64,000 nucleotides of DNA from Escherichia phage saus132: the sequence record NC_047884.1. One strand, written 5' to 3'. The position numbers and the translations under genes were made by a program. Each line of letters begins with the position of its first letter. The first letter of the stretch is position 1. Below the pieces are notes generated by a model. The model was not told the DNA's origin. It did not search any database and saw only the letters and a list, made by a program, of their open reading frames with translations. Below are positions 489-48,257 of the stretch, one piece after another.

Positions 489-517
489 ATTATAACAAGA
501 AATTAAGCATTAAGCAA
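489..517 (-). promoter_or_regulatory. sigma70-type early promoter with conserved downstream UTR; drives ORF-free region and tRNA-Ala genes
   Basis: Minus strand -35 TTGCTT, 17-bp spacer, -10 TATAAT. Confidence 0.55.
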
Positions 518-869
518 GTACATTTTTAGCGATTTCTTGTAGTTCCTTAACGTCGCTAACGAAAAGGTAATCAGAGCTTCCAGAGTGCATACTCTGCATA
601 ACCACACCACCATCCGGTGCATCTTCTTTCAAAGTAATACCTAACCAGAACTTGGCAAAACTAGGTGTTACCTCACCTTGACTTGCCTTGAACACATCGC
701 CTTCTGTGATCTCTTGACCAGTGGAGAGTCCCATGTATGGTACGTTCAGATCAATATCTTTGTAGAACTCAGCTAGATCTTGCTCGAAATCCCAACCTTT
801 AGAGATAGCGAACTCCATTGTTACATGACCGAAATAGCCTTGAACCTTGCTTGATAATTGCATTTGCAA
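510..869 (-). CDS. hypothetical protein (119 aa)
   Basis: Clean ORF on the strand of flanking tRNA genes; no recognisable motif. Confidence 0.5.
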   Translation of the reverse strand: MQMQLSSKVQGYFGHVTMEFAISKGWDFEQDLAEFYKDIDLNVPYMGLSTGQEITEGDVFKASQGEVTPSFAKFWLGITLKEDAPDGGVVMQSMHSGSSDYLFVSDVKELQEIAKNVLA

Positions 870-888
870 TTCCTTATTTTGAGTTAAT

Positions 889-962
889 TGGTACTCGGTG
901 ATAGAATCGAACTATCGCAACCGCCGTGTAAAGACGGGGTTCTCCCATTAAACTAACCGAGC
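889..962 (-). tRNA. tRNA-Val (UAC)
   Basis: Acceptor GCTCGGT/ACCGAGT, anticodon arm CCGTC-TTTACAC-GGCGG, T arm GATAG-TTCGATT-CTATC, CCA encoded. Confidence 0.6.
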
Positions 963-1095
963 AAAAGACGTCCTATAATATAGGCTTCAACTACAAATTC
1001 ACAGAAACCTGCTAAAAACATACCTATTGTAAAATCGGCAGAGAATACATAGGAATCTTTTATTTTCTGCTTCATTAAGTAAAACCAGATAGTCA

Positions 1096-1413
1096 TTAAA
1101 ATCTCTCCATTCTAAAGCCAATGAAGTAAGGTGCATTACATGGAACATGCTTAAGATCTTTAAGAGTAATTTTACGTCCTAAGCGTCGTTCCATACAAGT
1201 GAAACATAGAACAATATCTTTGGGCTGCTCTTTTCTTATCTGATCCCAGACCCAATCTTCAACCATACACATTTCATGGTATTGTTCACAGTCTCGACAA
1301 TAGTGACACTGATGTTCTGGTACTTTTTGATTTTTAATACACAGTTCAGTAAAGCGTTTTCCGGCTCTGCCAGACATTTCTGATATTGTTTCTAGAACTT
1401 TGTTAATATTCAT
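1096..1413 (-). CDS. Cys/His-rich small protein (105 aa), probable zinc binding
   Basis: ORF with HxCHYCxxC and CFTC clusters. Confidence 0.5.
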   Translation of the reverse strand: MNINKVLETISEMSGRAGKRFTELCIKNQKVPEHQCHYCRDCEQYHEMCMVEDWVWDQIRKEQPKDIVLCFTCMERRLGRKITLKDLKHVPCNAPYFIGFRMERF

Positions 1414-1430
1414 AACAAATTCCTTTAAAT

Positions 1431-1509
1431 TGGTAGACCGCCTGGGACTCGAACCCAGAACCTTCCGGTTAAAAGCCGGGTGCTGCTAAACCAATTGAGC
1501 TAGCGATCT
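1431..1509 (-). tRNA. tRNA-Lys (UUU)
   Basis: Acceptor AGATCGC/GCGGTCT, anticodon loop CTTTTAA, T arm CTGGG-TTCGAGT-CCCAG, CCA encoded. Confidence 0.7.
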
Positions 1510-1511
1510 AT

Positions 1512-1676
1512 TTAGTACATATATACTTCTTTAATAGAGTAGACTTTTAAGTAAGGATGATTAATACCAAATTCCGCCATCACTTCGTTTTCATCTTTAC
1601 CGTAATGGGCTAGTGGATACTTCTTACGATCTTTGCTAGAACGTAGATCACTTACTTTTAAGCGAAATAATTTCAT
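1512..1676 (-). CDS. small hypothetical protein (54 aa)
   Basis: ATG with weak SD between two tRNA genes; hand-translated MKLFRLKVSDLRSSKDRKKYPLAHYGKDENEVMAEFGINHPYLKVYSIKEVYMY; below track cutoff. Confidence 0.3.
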   Translation of the reverse strand: MKLFRLKVSDLRSSKDRKKYPLAHYGKDENEVMAEFGINHPYLKVYSIKEVYMY

Positions 1677-1775: not shown

Positions 1776-1781
1776 ATTGTT

Positions 1782-1859: not shown

Positions 1860-2336
1860 AATATTATCTTTTTAACCATAGTAAGGTTATACCTAACATG
1901 GTAAATCCAGTACCCAGCCCAATACTTTTTTCTATGAAATTGAAGGTATCAGTATTGACTGCGGTAATTAGTATAGGTATAGACCATAGTACCATGAATA
2001 CTTGAGCTATCTTATATTTCACTTTGCTTTCCTTCTTAACATTTTATAAGATATATTATACAGAGAATTAAGCAAAGTAGCAAATGAATTTTTAATAAAT
2101 TTACTTATTGCGTAGGCCACCTGGAGGGTTCAAGCCCCACGGCTGACAAAGAAGTTTGCGAGACTTCTCTTAAACGCCAGAATAGACCCGCCGATCTATC
2201 GGAACCTACTCAATAAGTAAACTTTCATTTACTTACACCTACCTGGTCGGGAGGATTTTCAGCGACTAGAACCGGCCGGAAACTCATCGCCTTGTTTATC
2301 TAGGAGTCCGTTCTCTAGGAAGCAGAAACCTAAATT

Positions 2337-4010: not shown

Positions 4011-4038
4011 TTGCTTCTCCAGTTCAATTTATGTAATA

Positions 4039-4067
4039 ATTATACAGAACTTTAAGCGGTTAAGCAA
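4039..4067 (-). promoter_or_regulatory. early promoter cassette
   Basis: Minus strand -35 TTGCTT, 17 bp, -10 TATAAT. Confidence 0.55.
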
Positions 4068-4347
4068 CTACATTTTTCAGAAATATGATGCCTTTCTTTT
4101 TCTTCTTATACTTCCACGTTAACGGGTTCTGTCGATTATGAACGCTTGAGATCTTTGTCTCGTCAAAGTTCTTCAATACCATGTAATCACAGGCCAACTG
4201 TTCTAGTGGAATGTGATCTCCGTCAAAAGCGTAAACGTAAGGCTGTTGACTGGCACGATAATGATAGACTTTGTTAATTCTGCGTTTCAGTGACTTATCC
4301 GCACAGTAAATAAAGAAGTTTTCAGGATGCATCAGCATCTCCTTCAA
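4060..4347 (-). CDS. hypothetical protein (95 aa)
   Basis: ORF; no recognisable motif. Confidence 0.45.
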   Translation of the reverse strand: MKEMLMHPENFFIYCADKSLKRRINKVYHYRASQQPYVYAFDGDHIPLEQLACDYMVLKNFDETKISSVHNRQNPLTWKYKKKKKGIIFLKNVVA

Positions 4348-4690: not shown

Positions 4691-4814
4691 ATATTTGAAT
4701 GAAAAGTAAGTCGGTTAAACTCAAGGTGGAATATTTCAGGATTTCCTGACTTTACCCCTAAAAGCAACTCGCTTAATTACTTCTCATTCAGATATGTTTC
4801 CAAATTAGATAAAT

Positions 4815-4843
4815 ATTATATCAAGTTTTAAGGCACTGAGCAA
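4815..4843 (-). promoter_or_regulatory. promoter for tRNA block Tyr-Glu-Trp-Phe; -35 overlaps a 12-bp-stem hairpin (4833-4871)
   Basis: Minus strand -35 TTGCTC, 17 bp, -10 TATAAT; inverted repeat GCACTGAGCAAG/CTTGCTCAGTGC. Confidence 0.5.
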
Positions 4844-4879
4844 GTCAAATTTTAAAGAACTTGCTCAGTGCTGTATCAG

Positions 4880-5173
4880 TTAATCAAATGAAGGAGTGAC
4901 TTTCAAAGTGAATGGAAGTTCGAATACCTCTTCACCTTCATCAGTAACAGTGACTACTCGACCCTCTAGCTTATTCATGCTGATTTCAACATCAGCCGTA
5001 GCATCAGGAGCCATACCAGCCTCAATACATTGAGCTTTGATCTCTGGAAGAAGTTCTACATTGTAGAAATAAAGCCACTCGATCTCACCTTCCCAACCAC
5101 CCCAGGATTTACATACTGAGCTTTCAATACCAGTTGCTGCAAAACGTTTTAACATTCTGATTCCTCTCATCAA
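4880..5173 (-). CDS. hypothetical protein (97 aa)
   Basis: ORF downstream of early promoter cassette. Confidence 0.5.
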   Translation of the reverse strand: MMRGIRMLKRFAATGIESSVCKSWGGWEGEIEWLYFYNVELLPEIKAQCIEAGMAPDATADVEISMNKLEGRVVTVTDEGEEVFELPFTLKVTPSFD

Positions 5174-5184
5174 CTTATATAACT

Positions 5185-5214
5185 ATTATAGCAGAAATCT
5201 TAAGCAAAAAGCAA
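5185..5214 (-). promoter_or_regulatory. early promoter cassette
   Basis: Minus strand -35 TTGCTT, 18 bp, -10 TATAAT. Confidence 0.5.
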
Positions 5215-5244
5215 GTACATTTTTAAAATTTCTGCTTGGAGGAG

Positions 5245-6512: not shown

Positions 6513-6606
6513 TGGAGGAAGATGCCAGATTCGAACTGGCACACCGTGTCTCCACAGCTACTGGCTGTTTAGCAAACAGCTCCCTTACCTTTAGGGTTAA
6601 TCTTCC
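6513..6606 (-). tRNA. tRNA-Ser (GCU), long variable arm
   Basis: Acceptor GGAAGAT/ATCTTCC, anticodon arm GCTGT-TTGCTAA-ACAGC, long variable arm, T arm GCCAG-TTCGAAT-CTGGC, 94 nt with CCA. Confidence 0.8.
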
Positions 6607-6622
6607 AAATTTATGAATATAT

Positions 6623-6650
6623 TATATTAGAAATTTAGCTTCATGGCAAG
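6623..6650 (-). promoter_or_regulatory. promoter driving tRNA-Ser and tRNA(CAU)
   Basis: Minus strand -10 TATAAT plus conserved UTR-like sequence; -35 TTGCCA at suboptimal spacing. Confidence 0.45.
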
Positions 6651-7028
6651 AAAATTTTTCAAGTTTTCTGTATTCATTTCATCTAAATCCATGAGGGAAG
6701 TAAACCCATTTAGTTTTTTAGCAAAATTCTCACCAGCAGAATCATTATCGCCTACGGCTACTACTTTAAAAGGTTGTAATTTTAGCTGCTTTAGCAATGC
6801 TTTGCTAGGGGAAGATCCTAGCATTGCTAGTGCGGGATATCCCGCGTTGTGTAGTGCCACAGCTTTAAATACAGATTCTGCAACTAATACTAGGTCTTCA
6901 TTACCTGTAAGAGTTTCTAAACCCCATAGACATTGAGTAGAAGAATGCGTAAAATATTTAGCTTCAGAAGGACATTTTCCATGACCTTTAGCTGCACTAG
7001 GGTTATATGTTTGATATCCACGTAACAT
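6627..7028 (-). CDS. Toprim-domain protein (133 aa from first ATG); frame stays open upstream to an in-frame TAA at 7113-7115 that follows a 10-codon ATG-initiated leader
   Basis: Toprim-like Glu (LVLVAESVF) and DxD (VVAVGDNDSAGE) motifs; promoter and strong SD lie upstream of the ATG at 7143, not of the ATG at 7028. Confidence 0.5.
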   Translation of the reverse strand: MLRGYQTYNPSAAKGHGKCPSEAKYFTHSSTQCLWGLETLTGNEDLVLVAESVFKAVALHNAGYPALAMLGSSPSKALLKQLKLQPFKVVAVGDNDSAGENFAKKLNGFTSLMDLDEMNTENLKNFLAMKLNF

Positions 7029-7176
7029 GCCAGAGAAATCATACAGTGGAACTGTTAACCATCCATGTGGAGAGAGCCAACAGTGATACTTATCACTATC
7101 AAAGCCCCTAGATTAAAGATGTTGTTTTAACTCGTCAACAGTCATATATGACTCCTATCTATAATTTATAGAATAT

Positions 7177-7205
7177 ATTATATAGAAAATTTCGGCATTA
7201 AGCAA
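7177..7205 (-). promoter_or_regulatory. early promoter cassette upstream of Toprim-gene leader
   Basis: Minus strand -35 TTGCTT, 17 bp, -10 TATAAT. Confidence 0.6.
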
Positions 7206-7213
7206 GTGAAATT

Positions 7214-7510
7214 TTACTGAACACTGCACTGATACACTTGTTTGATACGTGTCACTGACTTCTTAGTTGGATTGATAGAAGAACCTTGCCACCAACGTGA
7301 TTCTGAGCTGAGAACAGCACCAGGAACAGCTTGTTCTTTTGGCAGAACAATATCAAAACATTGCTCACCCATATTATCTTTAATGTGTGACCAAATATCC
7401 AAAGTAAATCGTTCTAGCTTATTACAAACTTGAACTTGACAAAGTTCCTGTTGTGGAGCAGCAAATACAGAAGTAGATACTAGAGTCAATGCAAGTACAA
7501 TGCGTTTCAT
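7214..7510 (-). CDS. small secreted protein (98 aa) with cleavable signal peptide
   Basis: MKRIVLALTLVSTSVFAAPQQ signal-like N-terminus; start moved to ATG after SD GAGAGAGG (track start is a TTG inside the UTR). Confidence 0.5.
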   Translation of the reverse strand: MKRIVLALTLVSTSVFAAPQQELCQVQVCNKLERFTLDIWSHIKDNMGEQCFDIVLPKEQAVPGAVLSSESRWWQGSSINPTKKSVTRIKQVYQCSVQ

Positions 7511-7540
7511 ATTTGATTCCTCTCTCAAATTTATAAATAT

Positions 7541-7569
7541 ATTATACAGAAATTTTCTATATTAAGCAA
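7541..7569 (-). promoter_or_regulatory. early promoter cassette
   Basis: Minus strand -35 TTGCTT, 17 bp, -10 TATAAT, then ATATATTTATAAATTTGAGAGAGG UTR with SD. Confidence 0.65.
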
Positions 7570-7616
7570 GTGAAAATTTCTGTATAATAGCCCTCTAAGC
7601 GAGGGCTATAACTACT

Positions 7617-9351: not shown

Positions 9352-9381
9352 ATTTGATTCCTCTCTCAAATTTATAAATAT

Positions 9382-9410
9382 ATTATACAGAGAATTTAGC
9401 ATTCAAGCAA
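9382..9410 (-). promoter_or_regulatory. early promoter cassette for nadR-pnuC operon
   Basis: 29-nt block identical to the cassette at 7541; -35 TTGCTT, 17 bp, -10 TATAAT. Confidence 0.65.
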
Positions 9411-9562
9411 TCGAATTTTTTAACTTTTTAGTGGAAAAAATCTCAAGGCATTTAGTGGTAGCACGTTGTTGCTACAATAATAGTATATGATTCTAAAGAA
9501 TTAAAGAATTAAATACTAAAGACCTTAGTTGAATAACTTATGGGCTTTTCTTTTGCCTTAAA

Positions 9563-10881: not shown

Positions 10882-11740
10882 TTTAGGTATTTTTAAGAAC
10901 TCTTATAAAAGCTCTTAAAGATACCCGACGGTAGGTAGGGTCAGCCCCCTCAGATTAAGCTCTGCAGCCCTTCCGTCAGACAATATCTTCCAGTTTAAGT
11001 CAGGGTGACTTTGTGGTTATGTTCTCCGTATGTGAAGAACTCGGTTAGGCTTAGGTCATGACTCCCAGCCTACTGCTGCCGCTCAACAGGAATTATCGCG
11101 AATTACCTGTACTATTGGGCACCATTAGTGACATCTCTCATGTCAGCGTTTCCCACTCTCATATTCACGCGGTCTGTTAGAATCGCACCTCCGATTTTCG
11201 ATGCGAAGCTGGATGCCTAGTCTCAGGTTAAACGGGGCACACACTAGGCAGTGATCCCGAGTTCCGAGTTTGGTTGAGGCCGTCAGGTTTCCTCGTGGTT
11301 TAGCTGTTTCGATTCTAACCTAATACTGATCAGGTGGCGTACCTCCTGAACTGTCATAGTATGTACTCCAGCAGCGAATGCTTATCCGGTATAAGCCCGA
11401 GTTATCTGATTCTTTCCGACCGCAGGATTCGAACCTGCATCTTCCACCAGTTACGGTTTGATATTACCGTTTATACTAGGACGGCAGTGTTATCACATAA
11501 GTCAGTTCGACACCCCACTAACATAAACTAGAGAAGAGTTTACGAGATTTCGGGACAGCTCCCGAGTTTTCCGCAGATTTTCAGTTCCCTATCAATAGCA
11601 ATAAGCGTTAGCTCGTAGCCTCTCTCAGAGTACTTACTAGTCTCCAACTCACCGACTCTATTCAGTGGAATAGCTATCCTAGTAGGAATCACTAAACTCA
11701 CTCAGCGTAATCGGCTCGCTGTTCTCTAATTTATGAATCT

Positions 11741-11769
11741 ATTATACAGAATTTTGAGGCGTTTAGCAA
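11741..11769 (-). promoter_or_regulatory. early promoter facing an 860-nt ORF-free region and tRNA-Arg
   Basis: Minus strand -35 TTGCTA, 17 bp, -10 TATAAT. Confidence 0.6.
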
Positions 11770-11777
11770 ATCAATTT

Positions 11778-12221
11778 TTAATTAAATTCGCCAGCAACCT
11801 GAGCAGCAATGCCACCGTCGTAACGACCAGGAAACTCTTCCTTAATCGCTTTCATCAGCATACCTTTTGTAATCCCAGGGTTCAACTTAACTAATTCTGC
11901 AAAGTATTTGCGAATCTCAGAATCAGATAACTGAGGCGGCAGATACTGTTGTAGCCATTTGTTCAGTATATACTCATACTGAGCAGACTGCAAGCTATAA
12001 TTATCAAGGTCTTGACCGTGAAGTTTAGCTTTCGTCTGATTAATGCTTTTCAGTTGAGCTTTTAGATAAGATACAAACTGTTCAGAAGTAATGAAGTCTT
12101 TATCAACACGCTGAAGATCTCCGATTATGGTCTGGTAGCTTTTAGCTACTTCTTTATCAGAACCATCAACCTTAGATTCCTGCAAAGCCCTACGCAAAAC
12201 ATCTAGAATATTCTCTTCCAT
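11778..12221 (-). CDS. hypothetical protein (147 aa)
   Basis: ORF; no recognisable motif. Confidence 0.5.
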   Translation of the reverse strand: MEENILDVLRRALQESKVDGSDKEVAKSYQTIIGDLQRVDKDFITSEQFVSYLKAQLKSINQTKAKLHGQDLDNYSLQSAQYEYILNKWLQQYLPPQLSDSEIRKYFAELVKLNPGITKGMLMKAIKEEFPGRYDGGIAAQVAGEFN

Positions 12222-12391: not shown

Positions 12392-12422
12392 ATTTCGCTT
12401 CCTCTCATTAATTTATGAAAGT

Positions 12423-12451
12423 ATTATACAGAAATTTAAGGCTTTAAGCAA
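12423..12451 (-). promoter_or_regulatory. early promoter cassette
   Basis: Minus strand -35 TTGCTT, 17 bp, -10 TATAAT. Confidence 0.6.
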
Positions 12452-12459
12452 TCGAATTT

Positions 12460-12927
12460 TTAAGTTTTCTTAACCACAGGCTTGTAGAATGTATGGCCTT
12501 GAATCTTCGTTGTTTTCTTAAACTTCTTTGTCCAGTACGGTTTATCTTTACCACTATGGAAGTATAACGCTCCATGTGTTGGATCTTGTGGTAAATCAAC
12601 GTAGTATATCACTCTAGCTAAATTCTTAGCAACTTGCCAAGCCTCATCGGTTTTATCAACTTTTGGTCTCCTGGCCACCCAAGAGAACTGGTTAGACTGA
12701 TATACTACTTTACAGTAAGAATCAGGAAAAGTACCAGAGTTAACACGGTTTTTAGTAACCTGTGCAACTGCGATCATTCCTTTAGTGCCCTCACCTCGTG
12801 CTTCGAAGTAGATATTTTTTGCAATGCAATCAATCTGCTTTGAGTCGTAGGTCGCATGACTATTGAAGCTATAGGTTAGGGCAGCTATTAAAAGCAAAGC
12901 TGCCTTCATTTTATTTACTCCGGCCAA
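12460..12927 (-). CDS. secreted cell-wall hydrolase, SleB/CwlJ-like
   Basis: Signal peptide MKAALLLIAALTYSFNSHA; NIYFEARGE motif characteristic of SleB-type hydrolase domain. Confidence 0.55.
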   Translation of the reverse strand: MAGVNKMKAALLLIAALTYSFNSHATYDSKQIDCIAKNIYFEARGEGTKGMIAVAQVTKNRVNSGTFPDSYCKVVYQSNQFSWVARRPKVDKTDEAWQVAKNLARVIYYVDLPQDPTHGALYFHSGKDKPYWTKKFKKTTKIQGHTFYKPVVKKT

Positions 12928-13232: not shown

Positions 13233-13262
13233 AATAGCCTCGTCTCATCAATTTAAAAATAT

Positions 13263-13291
13263 ATTATACAGAAAACTAAACTAATTAGCAA
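13263..13291 (-). promoter_or_regulatory. early promoter cassette
   Basis: Minus strand -35 TTGCTA, 17 bp, -10 TATAAT. Confidence 0.6.
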
Positions 13292-13675
13292 ATACATTTT
13301 TAAATTGAGAGACTAGTAAACCGATAAACAGCCTAGAGGCGCCACAGGCCATATCTTATGAGCCATGTACCTTTGATCTAGGGTTTGAATCATCAACGAA
13401 TACTTTGCATCTTTTAGCTTTAGAAGGTTAGAAGTTTGAGTGCTTTTAACTTTTCAGCTTTCATACTTGAGCGTTGATCTTTGAAGTTGTGTTGGTACTA
13501 CCAACGACCTTTTGTTTTTACGTGTCAGATTAAATGTCTGATGTAATAAACATAATCTCCAATAGATTATACTTTATAGTATGGTCAGCGGTCTTATTTA
13601 ACCTCGTATTTCAACCGCTGCTGCGAGGTAAGATGCTTGGGCTTTCGTCTACCGATTTACTAGTCTTTTAAATTA

Positions 13676-14550: not shown

Positions 14551-14590
14551 AATTATTTTCCTTTTGTTGTTCTCTCAAATTTATGAATAT

Positions 14591-14619
14591 ATTATACAGA
14601 ATTTTGGAGCTGAAAGCAA
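14591..14619 (-). promoter_or_regulatory. early promoter cassette
   Basis: Minus strand -35 TTGCTT, 17 bp, -10 TATAAT. Confidence 0.6.
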
Positions 14620-14620
14620 A

Positions 14621-15322
14621 TCAAATTTTGATTTTTTCGATCATGATGGCTACACAATAACTTTCAACTAAAGCATCGAATGCTGGATCATGCTTCACGG
14701 GATAGATTCCATAACGAATGGTGTCCATCTTTTCCATTTTAGCTTTTGCCCAGCTAGCACCTTCGGCTTCTAGATCTTTATAACTATAACCAGCTTGCAT
14801 CCACTGATTACGGAAAGATCGAACGTTACCTAAGTTCCAGAATTTCCACGGAACTATTTCTTCATGGGTTCCGGCATGGAACGTATTTGCAGAGTAGATA
14901 GTCATATCAAACTCTGGGCCATTGCCGTAATACAGAGCATTATCTCCTAGAGACAATTCCATAATGTTCTGAGCCATAGAGAAGGCAGCGTAATTAGAAC
15001 CTACATCATTAGTGCAGTGATGCTTACCATCACGGAAGGCAATCAGTTTCGGATTGCGATTAGTCAATGCTTCTACTATATGGCAAGCTGAAGTACTCAG
15101 TCTAGCTTGTTCCATCCAGAATGCAATAGTAGAGGCAGTTACCTTAGCACCCGCATTAAGCTGATCCTGAACGTCTAGAGTAACGAAAACCAGATCAGGA
15201 TCTTTATCAATTCCGTGCATCGCTACAAAAGCGAAAGAAGGCATTGCGATATGAGTAGTACCGCAATTTCCTGGAGTACCTAGAGATTCAATGTCCAGCA
15301 TACCAAAGGGCTTGAATTTCAT
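14621..15322 (-). CDS. putative DEDD-type 3'-5' exonuclease (233 aa)
   Basis: N-terminal LDIESLG (DxE) and C-terminal HDPAFDA (H-x4-D) motifs. Confidence 0.45.
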   Translation of the reverse strand: MKFKPFGMLDIESLGTPGNCGTTHIAMPSFAFVAMHGIDKDPDLVFVTLDVQDQLNAGAKVTASTIAFWMEQARLSTSACHIVEALTNRNPKLIAFRDGKHHCTNDVGSNYAAFSMAQNIMELSLGDNALYYGNGPEFDMTIYSANTFHAGTHEEIVPWKFWNLGNVRSFRNQWMQAGYSYKDLEAEGASWAKAKMEKMDTIRYGIYPVKHDPAFDALVESYCVAIMIEKIKI

Positions 15323-16399: not shown

Positions 16400-16437
16400 T
16401 ATTTGTTTTCCTTTTTGTTGATCAATTTATGAGATAT

Positions 16438-16466
16438 ATTATACGAAATTTTGAAGCGTTTAGCAA
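16438..16466 (-). promoter_or_regulatory. early promoter cassette
   Basis: Minus strand -35 TTGCTA, 17 bp, -10 TATAAT. Confidence 0.6.
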
Positions 16467-16482
16467 ATGAATTTTTTAAAAA

Positions 16483-16761: not shown

Positions 16762-16788
16762 AAAGCCCTCCTCACTTTCAATACGAAT

Positions 16789-16817
16789 ATTATACTAAAT
16801 TCGAGGGCTTTAAGCAA
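16789..16817 (-). promoter_or_regulatory. early promoter cassette
   Basis: Minus strand -35 TTGCTT, 17 bp, -10 TATAAT. Confidence 0.6.
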
Positions 16818-16837
16818 GTGAATTTTTAATTTATTTA

Positions 16838-18164: not shown

Positions 18165-18194
18165 TATTAAATCCTTCTGTCAAATTAGAAGTAT

Positions 18195-18223
18195 ATTATA
18201 TTTGAATTTCACTAAGTAAGCAA
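18195..18223 (-). promoter_or_regulatory. early promoter cassette
   Basis: Minus strand -35 TTGCTT, 17 bp, -10 TATAAT. Confidence 0.6.
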
Positions 18224-18262
18224 ATGAAATTTAAATATAATAGCCCCGAAGGGCTATTTGAA

Positions 18263-21146: not shown

Positions 21147-21177
21147 TGATTTTCCTCTTTCTCACTATTTCAGGAAT

Positions 21178-21206
21178 ATTATAGCAAATCTGGTAGCGAT
21201 TAGCAA
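21178..21206 (-). promoter_or_regulatory. promoter for nrdB-DHFR-thyA operon
   Basis: Minus strand -35 TTGCTA, 17 bp, -10 TATAAT. Confidence 0.6.
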
Positions 21207-21212
21207 GTAAAA

Positions 21213-24450: not shown

Positions 24451-24451
24451 A

Positions 24452-27470: not shown

Positions 27471-27473
27471 ATT

Positions 27474-27518: not shown

Positions 27519-28205
27519 ATGGTACGAAGGAAGTTAGATAAAGACACTATCAATAAAGATTTAGAGCCTAGAAGAATTAAGCTAATAAGTGAGTATTCTG
27601 GAATCCTTAATAAAGGCACATTCATATGTAGTGTAGGTCATACATGGGAAGCTACTGTTAATAATGTAAGGAATAGCAAATCTGGCTGTCCAATATGCGC
27701 AGGTACTTTTAAACTTACTAAAGATTCGGTAAATGAAGGGTTACGTAGTAGGGGTATTACTCTTATTGGAGAGTATAAAAATAATGCTACTAAAACTCTT
27801 TTTGAATGTGAGCATGGGCATAGGTGGGAAGCCACAGTAGGCAATGTAAAGAATAAAAATTCTGGGTGTCCTGTGTGCGATACTGATTGGAATACCCCTG
27901 GTTTTATATACATTATGTGTAGTAGTATGGGAACTAAAATAGGAATTAGTATCTCTCCTGAAAGACGGTGGAAAGAGATAGTTAAAAGCTCCAATATACT
28001 AGATTTATATATTTTTGGTGTCTATTCAATAGATTCTGGTACCAAATCTAAAAGTAGGTCTATCGAGAAACAGACTCATGAATATTTTTCAGAATATAGA
28101 TTAAAGTATACAGGATTTGCTGGATGTACTGAATTCTTTGATATATCTCCCATAGCCGTAGAAAAGCACTTAATTAATAATGGGTGTATAAAGGTAGAAA
28201 AATAA
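27519..28205 (+). CDS. zinc-ribbon repeat protein with C-terminal T5orf172 (GIY-YIG-like) domain
   Basis: Two repeats CxxGHxWEATVxNVxNxxSGCPxC, then GFIYIMCSSMGTKIGIS. Confidence 0.5.
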   Translation: MVRRKLDKDTINKDLEPRRIKLISEYSGILNKGTFICSVGHTWEATVNNVRNSKSGCPICAGTFKLTKDSVNEGLRSRGITLIGEYKNNATKTLFECEHGHRWEATVGNVKNKNSGCPVCDTDWNTPGFIYIMCSSMGTKIGISISPERRWKEIVKSSNILDLYIFGVYSIDSGTKSKSRSIEKQTHEYFSEYRLKYTGFAGCTEFFDISPIAVEKHLINNGCIKVEK

Positions 28206-28214
28206 ATAAAGTAC

Positions 28215-28245
28215 TTGCTTATATTACTTTTATTTGATATTATAT
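28215..28245 (+). promoter_or_regulatory. promoter
   Basis: -35 TTGCTT, about 17 bp, AT-rich -10, conserved UTR-like sequence. Confidence 0.5.
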
Positions 28246-28270
28246 TATTATAAATTAGAGAGGAGGGTGT

Positions 28271-31543: not shown

Positions 31544-31634
31544 TTTTCATTAGTCCAATCCTGATTACCGAGTCATTTTGGCTCGGTTTTCTCTGTGCTC
31601 AAAGACACTGATAGCACCTTCGGAAAAATTTTAC

Positions 31635-31663
31635 TTGCAGGATGCTCAAAATCTTGATATAAT
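31635..31663 (+). promoter_or_regulatory. promoter with conserved UTR-like sequence but no ORF for about 500 nt
   Basis: -35 TTGCAG, 17 bp, -10 TATAAT. Confidence 0.55.
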
Positions 31664-32159
31664 ATTTATATTGAATTGAGAGACATTAGTAAAAATTGAT
31701 TTTGCTAATTTTTCTTGTTTACAATCCGCAATACGGAACAGTTAGGCTGCCCCATTAAGGGTTGTTTTAACTATTACTAGTGTTTATACTGCATTAGTTA
31801 ATTATCAATTAAGTGATCTGCGTACCCTGAATTCGGAAAGGTAAATCCAAACCGTGCATATTTAGCTCGTTATATAGGCAGAGCTTTATATGGGGGTGCG
31901 AACGAAAAGAGCAGCGAATGGTGACACGTCCAGTAGCCACCTACCAATAGGATAGTGAGGGCAATCAGAATCGGCTTAGCGGCCAATGACCTAGGTTCTG
32001 ATCTGGATAAGAGTTAAGAGAGCGCAGCACTGAGGTATGATAACTTATTCATACTGCTTGATGATGATTAATGTTTGTGTAAATGGTAGTAATAGTTGTT
32101 CTATTCTTTTGAATAGTCCTAAAGAAAGATATCCGAATAACCAACATAGGAGTATTGTT

Positions 32160-34949: not shown

Positions 34950-35166
34950 AAAGTGGGAAACAAGGAAGTTTCCCGTAAAAGAACGTAAAACTTCTGTTTA
35001 CGATACTGCGGAGAAACTATGTAGGGTTGTACCACCTCGTCTCGCGGGCATCCCTAACGTCTCCATATGGTTACTTAAACAACGGAAGACTCGTGTGTCT
35101 CTTCGCATTGGCTTTGAGTTAGATAAAGTCTATGCTGAACTTGCTTCTTTGCTCAAAGAATCGTAA
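34932..35166 (+). CDS. hypothetical basic protein (78 aa)
   Basis: ORF overlapping helicase stop. Confidence 0.35.
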
Positions 35167-35174
35167 AAATTTAT

Positions 35175-35203
35175 TTGCTTTCAGAAAAATTTTTCTGTAT
35201 AAT
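35175..35203 (+). promoter_or_regulatory. promoter
   Basis: -35 TTGCTT, 17 bp, -10 TATAAT, conserved UTR and SD. Confidence 0.65.
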
Positions 35204-35234
35204 AGATTCATAAATTTGAGAGAGGAGTTTAAAT

Positions 35235-36186: not shown

Positions 36187-36206
36187 CAGTTACTGAAAAA
36201 TTTCAG

Positions 36207-36235
36207 TTGCTCAATCCTATAATTCTTGATATAAT
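36207..36235 (+). promoter_or_regulatory. promoter
   Basis: -35 TTGCTC, 17 bp, -10 TATAAT. Confidence 0.55.
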
Positions 36236-36293
36236 ATTCTCATAGTTTGAAAGAACTATTCTGTTTAATTCTTAATTAAGGAAATTCAAAAAT

Positions 36294-37396: not shown

Positions 37397-37423
37397 TTCT
37401 TGGCTTTTTCTTTATAAATGTAC

Positions 37424-37452
37424 TTGCTTTCATCCCTATTTTCTTATATAAT
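37424..37452 (+). promoter_or_regulatory. promoter
   Basis: -35 TTGCTT, 17 bp, -10 TATAAT, conserved UTR. Confidence 0.6.
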
Positions 37453-37481
37453 AGTTATATAAATTAATGAGAGGGGTGAAT

Positions 37482-38992: not shown

Positions 38993-39056
38993 ATTATCAT
39001 TCAGTTGAGGGATAGAAAGTTATGGCGAGGGTAAGCAAAGTTAGTTAAAATTGTAG

Positions 39057-39085
39057 TTGCTAAATGCTTAAATACTTGCTATAAT
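39057..39085 (+). promoter_or_regulatory. promoter immediately upstream of ligase C-terminal ORF
   Basis: -35 TTGCTA, 17 bp, -10 TATAAT, conserved UTR. Confidence 0.6.
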
Positions 39086-39115
39086 ATTTATATAAATTGA
39101 TAAGGAAGAAATTTG

Positions 39116-42210: not shown

Positions 42211-43097
42211 GTAGAATAACAGAACTACTTGATCTGAAAGGCATTGAATACAAAGACACAGGTGGGGACATCCTCATCTGTTGTCTCAATCCAGATCATG
42301 ATGATAAACACCCAAGCTTGCGTATTGATCCTGAATCAGGTATTATGCATTGCTTGAGCTGTGGCTTCGGTAGAGGAATACCGAGCATTTACCATTATTT
42401 TAATGAGACTCAGTACAGACAGTCCCCAAGATTGTCACAAGTACATAAAAAGATTTCAGAGATTAGGAATGGATCTACGAATCTTGCAATTCCTGAATCT
42501 GCTTACCTTTTCGAAGGTGATTTCCGAGGTATCAGTTCTAAGACCTTGAAGAAATATTTTGCTTTCCAACATCAAGCAGACTGGGAAGGCAGAATTGTAT
42601 TCCCAATAACAGATGCTGTTGGACGCAATATCCTATTCCTGGGACGTTCTATAAACAGTTCTGCCCCTCCTAAATACTTAGTAAAACCAAAACAAGTTTC
42701 ACCACCGATTTTCCCTGTACGATATAATACACCAGTTCTTGTTCTAGTTGAAGGTATCTTTGATATGTTAAATCTAGAAGACAATGGTGTAGATTATGCT
42801 TCTTGCTGCTTTGGTACACATCAGTTTACATCTGATAACATTGCGGATAAGTTTAGTCCTTACATTATTGCTGGAGTAAGAGTAGTTGTTATCTTGCTAG
42901 ATAATGATGCCTCTGGTAATAAAGCTGCCCAAGCACTAGCGAAGCTAATTCGTACAAAAACACGTTTAACACCTGTAGTTGGTAACTTCCTTCTTCCAGA
43001 AGGCAAAGACCCAGGTGACTTAAATAAAGAAGAGATCGATATGTTGGCTCAACGTATTGAAATTTTAGTTGCCGAATCGCTCAAAGATTTGGTATAA
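42207..43097 (+). CDS. DNA primase (zinc-binding plus Toprim)
   Basis: Zinc motif CCLNPDHDDKHPSL...HCLSCG; Toprim EGIFD and LLDNDASG. Confidence 0.8.
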   Translation: MSRITELLDLKGIEYKDTGGDILICCLNPDHDDKHPSLRIDPESGIMHCLSCGFGRGIPSIYHYFNETQYRQSPRLSQVHKKISEIRNGSTNLAIPESAYLFEGDFRGISSKTLKKYFAFQHQADWEGRIVFPITDAVGRNILFLGRSINSSAPPKYLVKPKQVSPPIFPVRYNTPVLVLVEGIFDMLNLEDNGVDYASCCFGTHQFTSDNIADKFSPYIIAGVRVVVILLDNDASGNKAAQALAKLIRTKTRLTPVVGNFLLPEGKDPGDLNKEEIDMLAQRIEILVAESLKDLV

Positions 43098-43159
43098 TAT
43101 ATTGGTAAGTTAGAGAAGAAACACTGAAGTTATACTTACTTACCAAAAGGAGACTAAAT

Positions 43160-45727: not shown

Positions 45728-46217
45728 TTTCAAATTGCCCGTATATGCTTTACGGGCGTTTGTATCAATTGAGCAGGAAGGTGATTATTCCGTAATTACA
45801 ACAAGATATAATAAATATGTGCTAGATAACAGGAAGTTGCCTGGCACATTCTCTCAACGTAGATTAGACCTATTCGAGAAGCGGAAAGAATTACCTTATA
45901 AGCTCTATCCTATTCGTGGTAGAATATCAATGTTGTCCCAATTAGTTGGGTCAAAGCGTAGCCAGTTCATAGATTCTGATGGAAATCTTATTAATTGGAA
46001 GAAAACTACGTTCTATGATGTTATCACGTCTAAAGTTCTGCATTCTGCAAGAATTTATAATGGAAAGTATCAATGTTATGTGGCCAAAGTTCCATATCCA
46101 TTCGTACTATCCTATGTTCCAGCTTATATAAGCTATATTCTGGTAAATAATAGCCCTGTTATTTACCAAGTCCATCAAGAGGAGCCTGAAATTCCTAGAC
46201 TTAGAATAAAATTATGA
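45720..46217 (+). CDS. hypothetical protein (165 aa)
   Basis: ORF overlapping polymerase stop. Confidence 0.45.
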   Translation: MLDFKLPVYALRAFVSIEQEGDYSVITTRYNKYVLDNRKLPGTFSQRRLDLFEKRKELPYKLYPIRGRISMLSQLVGSKRSQFIDSDGNLINWKKTTFYDVITSKVLHSARIYNGKYQCYVAKVPYPFVLSYVPAYISYILVNNSPVIYQVHQEEPEIPRLRIKL

Positions 46218-47560
46218 AGGTTGTTATATCTAATAAAGCCTATTTCAAGCCCGATGATGAACTCTGGGATTACTGTAGTAAACAAACTACTTATCACATC
46301 GAGACAATGACTAGTAAATACCCTATTATGTATAAGAATAGTGGTGTTGTTGCTAAAGAGATTAAGTGGATTCCCGTTACGCGTCTGGATTTACTAGAGG
46401 CTAAGGGAGTAAAATACGAATTAGTTGATAAACGCACGTTATCTCCGGTAGAAATACCAGAACCTCAGTTCAAGCTACGTGAAGAAGATCAGCTTCCTAT
46501 ATATGAAGAGTGTGATGATACTTGTATTATCAATGGTAAGCCTGGATTTGGTAAAACTATCTTAGCTCTAGCTCTTGCGTATAAGTTTGGTCAGAAAACT
46601 CTGGTAATCTGCACTAACACATCCATTCGTGAAATGTGGGCTGCAGAAGTTCGTAAATGGTTTGGGTTCGAGCCTGGTATTATAGGTTCTGGAAAGTATA
46701 ATATTGATCCACCAATCGTGGTCAGTAATATACAAACAGTGAACAAACATGCGAATAATCTTTCTAAGGTATTCGGTACTGTTATAGTTGATGAAGTTCA
46801 CCACTGTGTAGCTACAACTTTCACTAATTTCCTAGAGATCTCATGTGCTCGCTACAAGATCGGTCTATCAGGTACATTAAAACGTAAAGATGGGCTACAA
46901 GTTATGTTCAAAGATTTCTTTGGATATAAGATCTTTAGTCCCCCTGTTAATAACACTGTTCCACCCACAATCCATAGGTACTCCGTACCTGTCGAGTTAT
47001 CAGGAAACCAGAACGTACCGTGGGCACTACGTGCTAATGATGTATATAATCATCCTGAATATCGGGAAACTATTATAAACCTAGCACATTTATATGTGTC
47101 TATGGGGCATAAGGTTCTCTTTGTAAGTGATAGGACGGAACTAATCCAAACAATATTAGAAGCTCTCGCACAACGTGGTGTTACAACCTATGAGATTATA
47201 GGTGCAACTCCTTTGGATGACCGATTGAGAATCCAGAAAGATGTAGCGGAGGGCGGACCCTGTGTGCTTGCAGCAGCTCAGAGTATCTTCTCAGAAGGTA
47301 TTTCTCTTAACGAGCTGTCTTGTTTAATAATGGGAAGTCTCATTAATAATGAATCTCTCATAGAACAGTTAGCAGGCCGCGTTCAACGTATTGTTGACGG
47401 AAAGTTAGATCCGATTGTTGTAGATTTAATTATGAAAGGAGGTACTGGTTTAAGACAGGCTTCTGGACGTATGGCCGTGTATCGCAATAATGCATGGAAA
47501 ACTATTACTATGACTCCGGAGAAAGCAGTTAGATTAGCCCAGGAAGTATTTAAGGCATAA
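46214..47560 (+). CDS. SF2 DNA helicase
   Basis: Walker A GKPGFGKT and DEVH box VIVDEVHH. Confidence 0.8.
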   Translation: MKVVISNKAYFKPDDELWDYCSKQTTYHIETMTSKYPIMYKNSGVVAKEIKWIPVTRLDLLEAKGVKYELVDKRTLSPVEIPEPQFKLREEDQLPIYEECDDTCIINGKPGFGKTILALALAYKFGQKTLVICTNTSIREMWAAEVRKWFGFEPGIIGSGKYNIDPPIVVSNIQTVNKHANNLSKVFGTVIVDEVHHCVATTFTNFLEISCARYKIGLSGTLKRKDGLQVMFKDFFGYKIFSPPVNNTVPPTIHRYSVPVELSGNQNVPWALRANDVYNHPEYRETIINLAHLYVSMGHKVLFVSDRTELIQTILEALAQRGVTTYEIIGATPLDDRLRIQKDVAEGGPCVLAAAQSIFSEGISLNELSCLIMGSLINNESLIEQLAGRVQRIVDGKLDPIVVDLIMKGGTGLRQASGRMAVYRNNAWKTITMTPEKAVRLAQEVFKA

Positions 47561-47561
47561 A

Positions 47562-48092
47562 ATGATAACACAAGATAAGCTCAAAGAACTTTTCGAGTAT
47601 AACCCAGATACAGGTGATTTTACTCGTAGAGTAGCTAAAGGTAGAGCTGCAAAAGGAAGTATTGCTGGATCTCGTAACTCTAATGGTTATGTCTATATAA
47701 AAATAGATAAAATATCTTATCCTGCACATAGGCTTGCCTTCCTATACGTGGAAGGCAGGCTTCCTGAAGAGATAGACCATATTAATCGTATAAGATGGGA
47801 TAATAGGTGGAATAACTTGCGAGAGACCACACATCAACAAAACTGCAGAAATAGAAACACTAGAAGTACTTCTGGATATTTAGGCGTACATTGGGATAAT
47901 AATTCTTCTAAATGGAAGGTAGAGATAACTAACTGTATAGGTGTTAAAATATACGGTGGGTTATTCCCTTATGAGGAATTAGAGTTAGCTATAGATAAAG
48001 CTAATGAACTTAGAGCACAGCATCTAGGCATGGATTCCAGACAAGAACTATTCAAAGGATATATTTGTCGACGTGAGGACTTAGATAAGTAA
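47562..48092 (+). CDS. HNH homing endonuclease
   Basis: HNH core DHINRIRWDNRWNNLRETTHQQN; N-terminus similar to the nrd HNH. Confidence 0.75.
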   Translation: MITQDKLKELFEYNPDTGDFTRRVAKGRAAKGSIAGSRNSNGYVYIKIDKISYPAHRLAFLYVEGRLPEEIDHINRIRWDNRWNNLRETTHQQNCRNRNTRSTSGYLGVHWDNNSSKWKVEITNCIGVKIYGGLFPYEELELAIDKANELRAQHLGMDSRQELFKGYICRREDLDK

Positions 48093-48100
48093 AATTGCAT

Positions 48101-48129
48101 TTGGCAACTGCTCATAATTATTGTATAAT
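48101..48129 (+). promoter_or_regulatory. orphan promoter cassette (no ORF follows; hairpin 48155-48178 downstream)
   Basis: -35 TTGGCA, 17 bp, -10 TATAAT, UTR ATACACATAAATTTGAGAGAG. Confidence 0.5.
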
Positions 48130-48201
48130 ATACACATAAATTTGAGAGAGAAAGTTTCGGATTGATAAGAAAGTCCGAAGCAGAAAAATAAAAATTGTAC
48201 T

Positions 48202-48230
48202 TGTCAAATCCTCCCGATTTAATGTATAAT
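48202..48230 (+). promoter_or_regulatory. promoter
   Basis: -35 TTGTCA, 17 bp, -10 TATAAT, conserved UTR then ATG. Confidence 0.6.
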
Positions 48231-48257
48231 ATATACATAAATTGATGAGAGACAAAA

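Follow-up and report, generated by a model that had tools for sequence, protein, structure and literature searches.

A repeated cassette in a T5-like phage is the long-known early promoter, and its conserved transcribed block is probably discriminator plus promoter-escape sequence

The stretch of DNA analysed here (the window) comprises 64,000 nucleotides of Escherichia phage saus132 (NC_047884.1). It is 100% identical to MF431736.1 and corresponds to bases 32,001-96,000 of the T5-like phage chee130_1, which bears out the T5-like assignment made in an earlier note from the letters alone. A search for TTGCTW-N17-TATAAT with at most one mismatch returned 27 matches, against 1.69 ± 1.24 expected from dinucleotide shuffles, none of which attained 27. 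Two of these strict matches, 18770(+) and 50393(-), were dropped as chance matches inside genes. Loosening of the -35 element and the spacer added copies at 5185-5214(-), 31635(+), 43069(+), 48101(+) and 48201(+). Full cassettes number 27, 18 on the minus and 9 on the plus strand, spanning 463 to 48256, so that the earlier estimate of about 25 copies was right. Five chance occurrences of the core hexamers inside genes serve as an internal control, and all five lack the UP block as well as the transcribed block.

Coordinates below run from the UP block to +20, and start sites other than that of the classical promoter P_N25 are putative, having been placed by alignment. On the minus strand, the cassette at 463..529 (-35 TTGCTT, -10 TATAAT, atttat-ATAAATTGAT; start 482) lacks a Shine-Dalgarno sequence (SD) and precedes about 330 nt of unannotated transcript and then tRNA-Ala. 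There is likewise no SD at 4789..4855 (CTAATTTGGA; start 4808), which drives the tRNA-Tyr/Glu/Trp/Phe cluster and within which a block of homology to phage AZ21 begins (4792); at 6595..6661 (ATAAATTT; start 6614), with tRNA-Ser immediately downstream, from 6606, 8 nt past the start; or at 11715..11781 (ATAAATTAGA-gaacag; start 11734), which has no ORF and whose transcript contains a borderline tRNA (11414-11485) and tRNA-Arg. The transcribed block is weak at 2029..2095 (TATAAAATGT; start 2048) and at the nrdB cassette, 21152..21218 (GAAATAGTGA); it is 1 nt out of register at 7151..7217 (TATAAATTAT; start ~7170) and at 16412..16478 (CATAAATTGA, with a CAA-rich leader), and divergent at 16763..16829 (ATTGAAAGTG-aggagg), a variant found identically in the AZ21 ortholog. 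The cassette at 5159..5226 (ATAAGTTGAT-gagagg; start 5178) has an 18-nt spacer and was not caught by the strict pattern. Further copies lie at 4013..4079 (ATAAATTGAA; start 4032; ATG 4010), 12397..12463 (ATAAATTAAT-gagagg; start 12416), 13237..13303 (TTAAATTGAT-gagacg; start 13256), 18169..18235 (CTAATTTGAC-agaagg; start 18188, an AZ21 homology block ending at 18189) and, for phoH, 25252..25318 (GTAAGTTGAT, with a long leader). The cassette at 14565..14631 (ATAAATTTGA-gagaac; start 14584; leader 34 nt) retains GAGAG despite a true SD (AAGGA) farther downstream.

The two remaining minus-strand copies, 7515..7581 (start 7534) and 9356..9422 (start 9375, upstream of nadR), each match the consensus at 21 of 22 positions. 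They hold the pair reported earlier as identical over 29 nt (7520-7548 and 9361-9389); the identical run is in fact longer, 7507-7550 equalling 9348-9391 over 44 nt, from 3 nt ahead of the -10 hexamer through the ATG and one further nucleotide. These 44-nt copies form direct repeats on either side of nadR-pnuC, and in AZ21 a crossover falls within the 44-nt stretch (cassette 9356..9422).

On the plus strand, the earlier appeal to T5 early promoters found direct confirmation, since 35163..35229 is P_N25, identical to the published sequence but for one spacer base, with +1 at the A of ATAAATTTGAGAGAGGAG (35210) and an ATG at 35235. The others are 28203..28269 (-10 TATTAT, ATAAATTAGA-gaggag; start 28250); 31623..31689 (weak -35 TTGCAG, ATTGAATTGA-gagaca), followed by a non-coding leader of about 490 nt and then a gene starting at 32160; 36195..36261 (variant ATAGTTTGAA, leader 52 nt), whose variant is shared by the AZ21 and Klebsiella orthologs; 37412..37478 (ATAAATTAAT-gagagg), adjoined on its upstream side by a terminator hairpin (37379-37407); 39045..39111, for ligase subunit B (ATAAATTGAT-aaggaa); and 43057..43124, for DNA polymerase (-35 TTGCCG, 18-nt spacer, variant GTAAGTTAGA), where a small hairpin in the leader has the first transcribed bases as its 5' arm. 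Two early-type promoters stand in tandem: 48089..48155 (-35 TTGGCA, ATAAATTTGA-gagaga) has no downstream ORF and a short hairpin ahead of the second, 48189..48256 (TTGTCA, 18-nt spacer, ATAAATTGAT-gagaga), at which the ATG at 48258 starts a possible unannotated ORF and the region delimited in the earlier note ends.

In the alignment, conservation is not confined to the -35 and -10 hexamers but extends to an upstream A/T block (AAAAATTT, 0.9-1.4 bits per position), part of the spacer (AAATTTCTG, 0.3-0.9 bits), the discriminator ATATTC, ATAAATTKRA at +1 to +10 and a purine run, positions 1-23 downstream of the -10 hexamer carrying 0.2-1.2 bits each. The description of the transcribed block as highly conserved was right as to conservation and overstated as to degree, the consensus being degenerate: per-copy agreement with the 22-nt consensus ATATTC-ATAAATTTGA-GAGAGG ranges from 9/22 to 21/22, and only four copies lie within three mismatches of the 24-mer proposed earlier, half of which is discriminator and never transcribed. 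The pattern is common to the Klebsiella, Providencia, Vibrio and Aeromonas relatives. Across 89 promoters from five genera, base preferences are pronounced (A at -6, 90%; pyrimidine at -1, 92%; T at +2, 80%; purine at +4, 94%; T at +7, 84%; purine at +9, 93%), and since preferences for A versus T reach p values of 1e-5 to 1e-19, the pattern is more than AT-richness. Positions +1 to +8 are 82% A/T, +9 to +18 are 82% purine, and 67% of copies have a pyrimidine-G step at +7/+8 or +8/+9.

Each cassette is, with high probability, an early-class sigma-70 promoter served by unmodified host RNA polymerase, and the "conserved transcribed block", judged by the cassette anatomy, is its discriminator plus an initial transcribed sequence (ITS) that would set promoter escape. 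Such a promoter comprises a UP-like A/T block (~-47 to -36), the -35 hexamer TTGCTW, a spacer of 17 or sometimes 18 nt ending in AAATTTCTG, and the -10 consensus TATAAT with an A next to it on the 3' side. After these come the discriminator ATATTC, poor in G/C and with a pyrimidine at -1, the A at which transcription starts, and the ITS ATAAATTKRA, which continues as far as about +18 in a run rich in purines and poor in C. The block would act on DNA and nascent transcript during initiation: the pyrimidine at -1 and A at +1 would fix the start site, +1 to +8 would be easily melted and scrunched ahead of the purine-rich +9 to +18, and these features would jointly set how fast polymerase escapes from a promoter that binds it very tightly. 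If there is an ORF downstream, the purine run turns G-rich at +15 to +18 and serves as SD; leaders before the start codon mostly measure 20-27 nt and so lie entirely inside the ribosome-binding site. At N25, ApU priming on the published sequence identifies the A of ATAAATT as +1, and +3 to +20 sets promoter escape, replacement lowering full-length RNA about 10-fold and raising abortive products (PMC12464699, PMC5961368). That the other 26 copies work like N25 we infer, and likewise the physical rationale. The block is not obviously a "fast-escape" optimum, because N25 is described as escape-limited (PMC12464699) and 67% of copies carry the pyrimidine-G step, a motif that has been associated with slow escape and initial pausing.

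The earlier note suggested, besides a promoter, a shared post-transcriptional signal; the A/U-rich start of the early mRNAs could then act as an S1-type translation enhancer, RNase entry or regulator-binding site. A/U-rich tracts 5' of an SD can enhance translation, coding leaders are short enough to place AUAAAUUU just 5' of the SD within the ribosome footprint, and leaders lack structure, with a mean folding energy of -3.3 kcal/mol. As the main role this is nevertheless improbable. The exact string ATAAATT was counted 32 times where 25 were expected; 16 occurrences lie 6-7 nt past a -10 hexamer, 14 of them beginning exactly 6 nt past it, and the remaining 16, away from any -10 hexamer, are at chance level. 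None of about 49 true internal genes is preceded by the block; they have plain AAGGA/GGAG sites. The +1 to +13 pattern is equally strong in 55 short-leader coding promoters and in 34 that have either a long leader or no ORF nearby, a class that includes promoters running into a tRNA 8 nt past the start, where the block would be removed as 5' leader. Leaders and internal ribosome-binding sites show no difference in folding energy (p = 0.30), and an Rfam search found tRNAs and no other RNA family. With its fixed distance to the -10 hexamer, its absence before internal genes, its retention before tRNAs or without an ORF and its absence from the examined promoters of the pre-early and late classes, the block behaves as a promoter part and not as a free RNA signal. 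The SD that was said to end it holds for the G-rich positions +15 to +18 of coding copies (G 45-49%, n=55, versus 18-21%, n=34, in the non-coding or long-leader class) and not for the rest; this is the sole translation signal in the block, though coding copies may also gain in translation or in mRNA stability from the A/U-rich 5' end. Copies could also be alike through copying or exchange of cassettes by recombination (concerted evolution), rather than through selection on each position. The 44-nt repeats flanking nadR-pnuC, with an exact repeat-to-repeat junction in phages AZ21 and NG_S8, agree with this, as does the concentration of homology-block ends against AZ21 in cassettes (11/27; p=2.5e-8 under a uniform null, 0.002 under an intergenic-only null). 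Beyond the 44-nt pair, however, copies share only a degenerate consensus (9-21 of 22), variant cassettes are not systematically closer to copies in the same genome than to orthologs, and the consensus persists in phages with a polymerase only 51-58% identical, at a distance where neutral sites are saturated. Orthologs in different genera moreover retain promoter-specific variants, and orthologous promoters show +1 to +10 under purifying selection: identity there is 98% against 83% in the spacer versus AZ21 (p=4e-8) and 90% against 51% versus the Klebsiella phage (p=2e-5). Identity of the -10 hexamer and of the -35 TTG is built into this comparison, so neither can be set against the ITS. Concerted evolution is accordingly a very unlikely account of the shared block.

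Beyond promoter escape, the region from -6 to about +13 could mark the early class and be read by a candidate phage factor, either gpT5.026-bearing RNA polymerase or an early DNA-binding protein, that would lower the activity of early promoters at the switch from early to late; the block would then be operator-like or sensitive to polymerase state. In the handful of pre-early and late promoters examined the transcribed block is absent, though some have better -35 hexamers, and the class contrast thus rests on small numbers. Contrast cases in the window are 27473..27501(+), with TTGCTT-N17-TATAAT, no ATAAATT and an SD, AGGAGGG, immediately past the discriminator; the nrdD promoter at 25499..25527(+), a perfect-consensus TTGACA-N17-TATAAT without early-type discriminator or transcribed block; and, in the late region, 63215..63243(-), TTGATA-N17-TATAAT attgtt ATTAAGAGGAG, again without ATAAATT. 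An isolated early-type promoter within the late region does have the block, which is conserved in five host genera and, among orthologs, under tighter constraint than spacer and UP block. According to Klimuk et al. (PMC7472727), it is chiefly in the discriminator that early promoters differ from late ones, gpT5.026 makes the interaction of polymerase with the discriminator weaker, early transcripts rise without it, and the mechanism of the switch is unknown; the effect of gpT5.026 in vitro is nevertheless only moderate and the switch occurs even in its absence. The block also lacks constrained dyad symmetry, the C/T at -1 being unpaired with +4 (purine in 94%). We regard such a mark as possible but doubtful; early-class restriction, family-wide conservation and promoter-specific variants exceed generic escape needs and leave room for a regulatory reading. 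Least probable is a checkpoint in which TAAATT at +2 to +7 acts as a -10-like element that holds sigma-70 and pauses polymerase near +17, as at lambda PR'. T at +2, A at +3 and T at +7 match the three key -10 positions and are among the best conserved in the block, and TAnnnT occupies +2 to +7 in 61% of 89 promoters. That excess is modest against the 47% expected from separate base frequencies, the pattern is missing from variants such as ATTGAATTGA, the ORF at 6028-6213, annotated as "antitermination protein Q", encodes only 61 aa without a Pfam match, and the N25 papers examined (including PMC12464699) report no pause near +17.

T5-like phages have long been known to carry this repeated cassette as the promoter of their early genes. 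Its conserved block is real and functional, yet no new signal, since it consists of the promoter's discriminator, its first transcribed bases and an ordinary ribosome-binding site. The AKFV33 promoter logo, the N25 transcribed-sequence studies and the ATATT discriminator are already published; what the present work contributes is the separation of transcribed block and SD, the tRNA-fused promoters, the five-genera comparison and the ortholog substitution rates.

Homologies among T5 early promoters were reportedly first described by Gentz and Bujard in 1985, and Kammerer et al. in 1986 and the Hsu laboratory are said to have recognised the N25 initial transcribed sequence, or "downstream sequence region", as a promoter-escape determinant. 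Compared with T5 early promoters (P_N25 and relatives) and the AKFV33 logo, elements and order here are the same and nothing essential differs: the 32 AKFV33 promoters have TTGCTw, a 17-18 nt spacer and TATAATA, with AAAAATT in the -43 region and a "+1 region (TAAATT)" in the logo (Niu et al. 2012, PMC3326045), and the ATATT discriminator occurs in all known early promoters (Klimuk et al. 2020, PMC7472727). The native N25 ITS ATAAATTTGAGAGAGGAG is exactly the conserved block at +1 to +20; the escape experiments, on one copy and mostly in vitro, leave early-class restriction and cross-genera conservation unexplained. The sigma-70-dependent promoter-proximal pause element of lambda PR', which works with the Q antiterminator, resembles the cassettes in a -10-like TAnnnT within the first transcribed bases and differs in that the window has no supported Q-like protein and several variants lack TAnnnT; pausing here would be by analogy. 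Promoter-early stem-loop cassettes (PeSLs) of T4-type phages (PMC2839356, PMC4122927) belong to a different phage family; an adjacent upstream stem-loop accompanies only ~6-8 of 27 cassettes here, so the composite that defines PeSLs is not regular. PeSLs are repeated strong sigma-70 promoters in an early region rich in accessory genes that act as recombination joints for modules, and they find their parallel here in the nadR-pnuC junction of AZ21 and in the way that homology-block ends cluster within cassettes.

The window is that of a T5-like phage, a 5 kb sample being 100% identical to MF431736.1 (Bacteriophage T5-like chee130_1, genus Epseptimavirus); record coordinates are converted to window coordinates by subtracting 32,000. 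It holds most of the early region, including the tRNA cluster and genes of nucleotide metabolism and replication, and its right end is taken up by late tail genes (about 10 kb). The pattern TTGCTW-N17-TATAAT, allowing one mismatch, matches 27 times, against 1.69 ± 1.24 in dinucleotide shuffles, none of which reached 27. Matches occupy the minus strand from 489 to 25,447 and the plus strand from 27,473 on, a split that follows the divergent early transcription units. Additional copies with a weak -35 element or an 18-nt spacer, at 5185-5214 (-), 31635 (+), 43069 (+), 48101 (+) and 48201 (+), were recovered by a weight-matrix scan and a scan with only TTG-N16-18-TATAAT. Full cassettes, comprising the promoter with its upstream block and first transcribed bases, number 27 in total between 463 and 48,256, in agreement with the earlier note, which had put them at about 25 over nearly the same range.

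The cassettes combine a TTGCTW -35 element, a 17-18 nt spacer and a TATAAT(A) -10 element with an A/T-rich -43 block (AAAAATT) and a "+1 region" TAAATT, the last two being evident in the information profile and the pooled counts. All 27 are located within 32-80 kb of the record, 5' of genes for tRNAs, nucleotide metabolism and replication. P_N25, the classical T5 promoter from which the "T5 promoter" of common expression vectors is derived, is also a standard system for studying promoter escape. The copy at 35163-35229 (+) is this promoter, differing from the published T5N25 top strand in one spacer base, and the T5 identity proposed for the family is thereby confirmed. A generic TTGACA-based promoter scan of 1-40 kb gave no enrichment over shuffles (51 vs 54; 38 vs 53) and is thus blind to the early family, which the family-specific pattern alone detects. 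Five chance occurrences of the core hexamers inside genes have neither flank and provide a useful internal control.

Conservation extends beyond the hexamers, as had been anticipated: the information profile takes in a AAAAATTT block on the upstream side, the spacer's 3' part (AAATTTCTG) and some 23 positions past the -10 element. To call the transcribed block highly conserved is nevertheless too strong, since the 24-mer originally noted occurs just four times within three mismatches and the fit of individual cassettes to ATATTC-ATAAATTTGA-GAGAGG ranges from 9/22 to 21/22. Published ApU priming of N25 transcription places +1 at the A of ATAAATTTGAGAGAGGAG. Applied to the other copies, this register divides the block into an untranscribed 6-nt discriminator (ATATTC), the first ten transcribed bases (ATAAATTKRA) and a purine run; initiation by host RNA polymerase at the A of ATAAATT, known for N25, would by alignment hold for these copies as well.

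Base preferences were counted in a pooled set of 89 promoters from five phages, selected solely by core hexamers and the A/T-rich upstream block; the comparison material consisted of annotated phage records, with Vibrio phage 70E37.6 left out. Upstream of the start, A-6 (90%), T-5 (66%), T-3 (69%) and Y-1 (92%) prevail, followed by A+1 (72%), T+2 (80%), A+3 (70%), R+4 (94%), A+5 (72%), T+6 (58%), T+7 (84%), K+8 (79%) and R+9 (93%). Positions +9 to +18 are 82% purine, and C accounts for just 6.9% of +1 to +20. The pattern is base-specific and more than A/T-richness, with A-versus-T binomial tests on the pooled counts giving p values from 1e-5 to 1e-19. A dyad-symmetric operator was considered and rejected: some copies have a palindromic ATTTATAAAT around +1, but the symmetry is not kept, as -1 is C/T and 94% of copies have a purine at +4.

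The same architecture and register recur in four relatives, namely Klebsiella phage AmPh_EK80, Providencia phage PR1, Vibrio phage Chloris and Aeromonas phage AhSzw-1, whose DNA polymerases are 77%, 67%, 57% and 58% identical to that of the window, respectively. The downstream genes alone served to pair orthologous promoters, giving 17 pairs for the E. coli phage AZ21 and 5 for the Klebsiella phage; by construction, no difference can arise in this comparison at the -10 hexamer or at the TTG of the -35 element. Identity to AZ21 reaches 98% at +1 to +10, against 83% in the spacer, 91% in the UP block and a mean of 92% in the downstream genes (+1 to +10 versus spacer, p = 4e-8). The corresponding values for the Klebsiella phage are 90%, 51%, 50% and 71% (p = 2e-5). 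Promoter-specific variants (ATAGTTTGAA, GTAAGTTAGA, ATTGAATTGA and ATTGAAAGTG) are retained between orthologs, and wholesale homogenisation of the cassettes therefore does not explain the block. Taken with the sector identities, this retention shows that the transcribed block is under purifying selection.

The post-transcriptional signal that the earlier note had suggested for this block is not supported by closer analysis. Exact ATAAATT occurs 32 times in the window, against 25.3 ± 5.3 in shuffles; 16 copies lie 6-7 nt past a -10-like hexamer, exactly 6 nt in 14 of them, and the remaining 16 are at chance level. The motif thus keeps a fixed register to the -10 element and start site, as an escape element does, and is not free-standing, being no commoner than chance elsewhere. 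The +1 to +13 pattern is alike in promoters with short coding leaders (n = 55) and in those with long leaders or no ORF (n = 34), with T+2 at 84% vs 74%, R+4 at 94% vs 94%, T+7 at 84% vs 85% and R+9 at 95% vs 91%; the Shine-Dalgarno (SD) position, +15 to +18, is G-rich in coding promoters only (45-49% vs 18-21%). The transcript at 6614 begins with AUAAAUUU and continues directly into tRNA-Ser, and one early promoter copy of the Aeromonas phage is likewise fused to a tRNA. Upstream of the approximately 49 true internal genes of the window no ATAAATT was found; plain AAGGA/GGAG sites are present instead, GAGAG being mostly limited to promoter-proximal leaders. A 5'UTR translation enhancer or RNA regulatory element is accordingly disfavoured, as no internal gene has the block, whereas the 34 non-coding or long-leader promoters and the tRNA-fused ones keep it. 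A conserved RNA structure or known RNA family is rejected: leader folding energy does not differ from that of internal ribosome-binding sites (p = 0.30), and Rfam at gathering threshold returned tRNAs and no other RNA family. Register, class comparison, internal genes and the folding and Rfam tests together indicate that the block travels with the promoter and not with translation starts. Since the leaders of coding copies are mostly 20-27 nt long, the cassette is a promoter plus a minimal ribosome-binding site.

A role in promoter escape is the preferred reading. The cassettes are presumably host sigma-70 promoters whose recognition elements are near-maximal and which would hence be limited at the escape step. 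Replacement of +3 to +20 in N25 leaves about a tenth of the full-length RNA, and abortive products multiply; the native transcribed sequence gives faster escape, with strong help from supercoiling (PMC12464699; PMC5961368); a comparable shift between productive and abortive synthesis upon change of the initial transcribed sequence is putative for the other copies. Y-1/A+1 would fix the start site, the A/T-only stretch from -10 to +8 would lower the cost of melting and scrunching, and the purine-rich stretch from +9 would stabilise the transcript at escape, serving also as the SD if an ORF comes next. We infer this physical rationale from an anatomy that is itself observed. The block is, in any case, not a simple fast-escape optimum, because 67% of copies have a Y-G step at +7/+8 or +8/+9, a motif that high-throughput work has tied to initial pausing and slow escape. 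A sigma-70-dependent proximal pause via TAnnnT at +2 to +7 is weakly suggested by the presence of that motif in 61% of copies against 47% expected, but such a pause finds no Q-like partner here: the ORF annotated "antitermination protein Q" (6028-6213, -) is 61 aa long and has no Pfam match, and Q-type antitermination is rejected on the same grounds. This annotation, which also appears in Providencia phage PR1, looks unsupported.

Another reading concerns promoter class. Credible pre-early (terminal repeat) and late promoters, few in number, have -35 elements of the TTGACA/TTGATA type and lack ATATTC-ATAAATT. The exception is one perfect early-type cassette standing alone in the late region (record ~112,000; locus L015, ~30960-31040), which reads TTGCTT ... 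TATAAT atattt ATAAATTAAA cagagg and lies 5' of a small gene beside the receptor-binding protein; the T5 gene at this position, llp, is expressed early. It is conceivable, if rather unlikely, that the block (-6 to ~+13) serves throughout Demerecviridae as an early-class cis element through which a phage factor throttles early promoters at the early-to-late switch. The factor could be RNA polymerase bound by the phage protein gpT5.026, or an early DNA-binding protein; it would act on the conserved Y-G step (+7 to +9) as a built-in checkpoint of initial transcription. This regulatory reading is kept open by the Y-G step, class specificity and family-wide conservation. Being early-only, present in T5 relatives of five host genera and constrained in orthologs, the initial 10-13 nt of the transcript offer a concrete candidate for the T5 early-to-late switch. 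Separately, residues 204-230 of the protein encoded at 39888-40655 (+), where T5 has gene D5, directly past ligase subunit B, match the Sigma70_r4_2 helix-turn-helix just below threshold (25.1 bits vs a cut-off of 25.7); T5 D5 is a DNA-binding protein required for late transcription.

Several leaders and transcripts have features of their own. Two tandem early-type promoters, 101 nt apart, occupy 48089-48256; the first is followed by no ORF and then by a small hairpin (TTTCGGA...TCCGAA), and at the equivalent place the Klebsiella phage (locus L002, ~24417-24640) shows this hairpin again, along with three promoters in tandem. The arrangement may reflect a short non-coding transcript or promoter stacking. 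At the DNA polymerase promoter (43105-43165), the variant start GTAAGT pairs with ACTTAC some 25-30 nt downstream into a 5'-terminal hairpin just 5' of the SD; it recurs in the Klebsiella and Providencia phages (-5 to -8 kcal/mol) and may be a leader stabiliser or a translational operator. A CAA-rich tract (caacaacaaaaggaaa) lies between the transcribed block and the SD at 14550-14584 and 16399-16431 (-), as it does in the leaders of gene D3 in the Providencia, Vibrio and Aeromonas phages, and may form an unstructured translation-enhancing spacer. About 850 unannotated nt at 10882-11734 (-), transcribed from the promoter at 11769, contain no convincing ORF; a borderline extra tRNA is found there at 11414-11485, upstream of tRNA-Arg (Rfam, 29.3 bits, threshold 29). 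A further ~490 nt downstream of promoter 31635 (31670-32159, +) are unannotated, and the gene that follows is annotated as DNA primase C here and as replication-origin-binding protein in relatives; the variant ATTGAATTGA-gagaca of this promoter is identical in AZ21 and present in the Klebsiella phage. The late-region promoter at 63185-63243 (-) is followed by ATTAAGAGGAGAAATTAACTATG, which is all but identical to "RBSII", a ribosome-binding site used in pQE-type expression vectors, suggesting that RBSII derives from this T5 gene.

The cassettes also appear to act in genome rearrangement. The earlier note correctly described the copies at 7520-7548 and 9361-9389 as identical, although the identical run is 44 nt (7507-7550 = 9348-9391) and not 29 nt. 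These two cassettes form direct repeats around a nadR-pnuC module (7617-9351). When the junction predicted for repeat-to-repeat recombination was built and compared with phage genomes, AZ21 aligned to it contiguously over 100% of the junction sequence at 97.7% identity, and phage NG_S8 likewise over 99% at 92.2%. At base level AZ21 is identical to the left flank as far as the repeat, and to the right flank beyond it. As both phages carry the exact junction (locus L012, 1770-1900; locus L014), the crossover lies inside the promoter/5'UTR cassette. Homology to AZ21 in the early region is arranged in blocks with abrupt identity steps (99.7%, 94.7%, ~84%). Of the 27 block ends, 11 lie within cassettes, which make up 4.9% of the sequence (p = 2.5e-8 under a uniform null; p = 0.002 for intergenic space only). 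Such crossovers bear on gene reshuffling in T5-like phages, which are often proposed for biocontrol.

The T5 early promoter family was reportedly first described by Gentz and Bujard in 1985. The cassette finding is a rediscovery of this well-known family, a positive control for the scan rather than a discovery. The logo itself had been published by Niu et al. 2012 (PMC3326045) from 32 promoters in the T5-like phage AKFV33, with a -43 AAAAATT block and a "+1 region (TAAATT)", and the window cassettes agree with it in both; work on what the N25 transcribed sequence does goes back to 1986 (PMC12464699; PMC5961368). The class contrast found here, in small numbers, likewise agrees with Klimuk et al. 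2020 (PMC7472727), in whose work early and late T5 promoters differ chiefly in the discriminator and ATATT is present in all known early ones. Two points go beyond the literature found and are cheap to pursue: the restriction and constraint of +1 to +10-13 relative to the spacer and UP block, and the role of cassettes as sites of homologous crossover around accessory modules such as nadR-pnuC. In the T4-type promoter-early stem-loop (PeSL; PMC2839356; PMC4122927) an adjacent stem-loop is defining, whereas an adjacent upstream hairpin accompanies about 6-8 of the 27 cassettes here, and a PeSL-like promoter-terminator composite is therefore rejected as their defining feature; what the two systems share is promoter-mediated modular shuffling, with modules gained and lost between cassettes.
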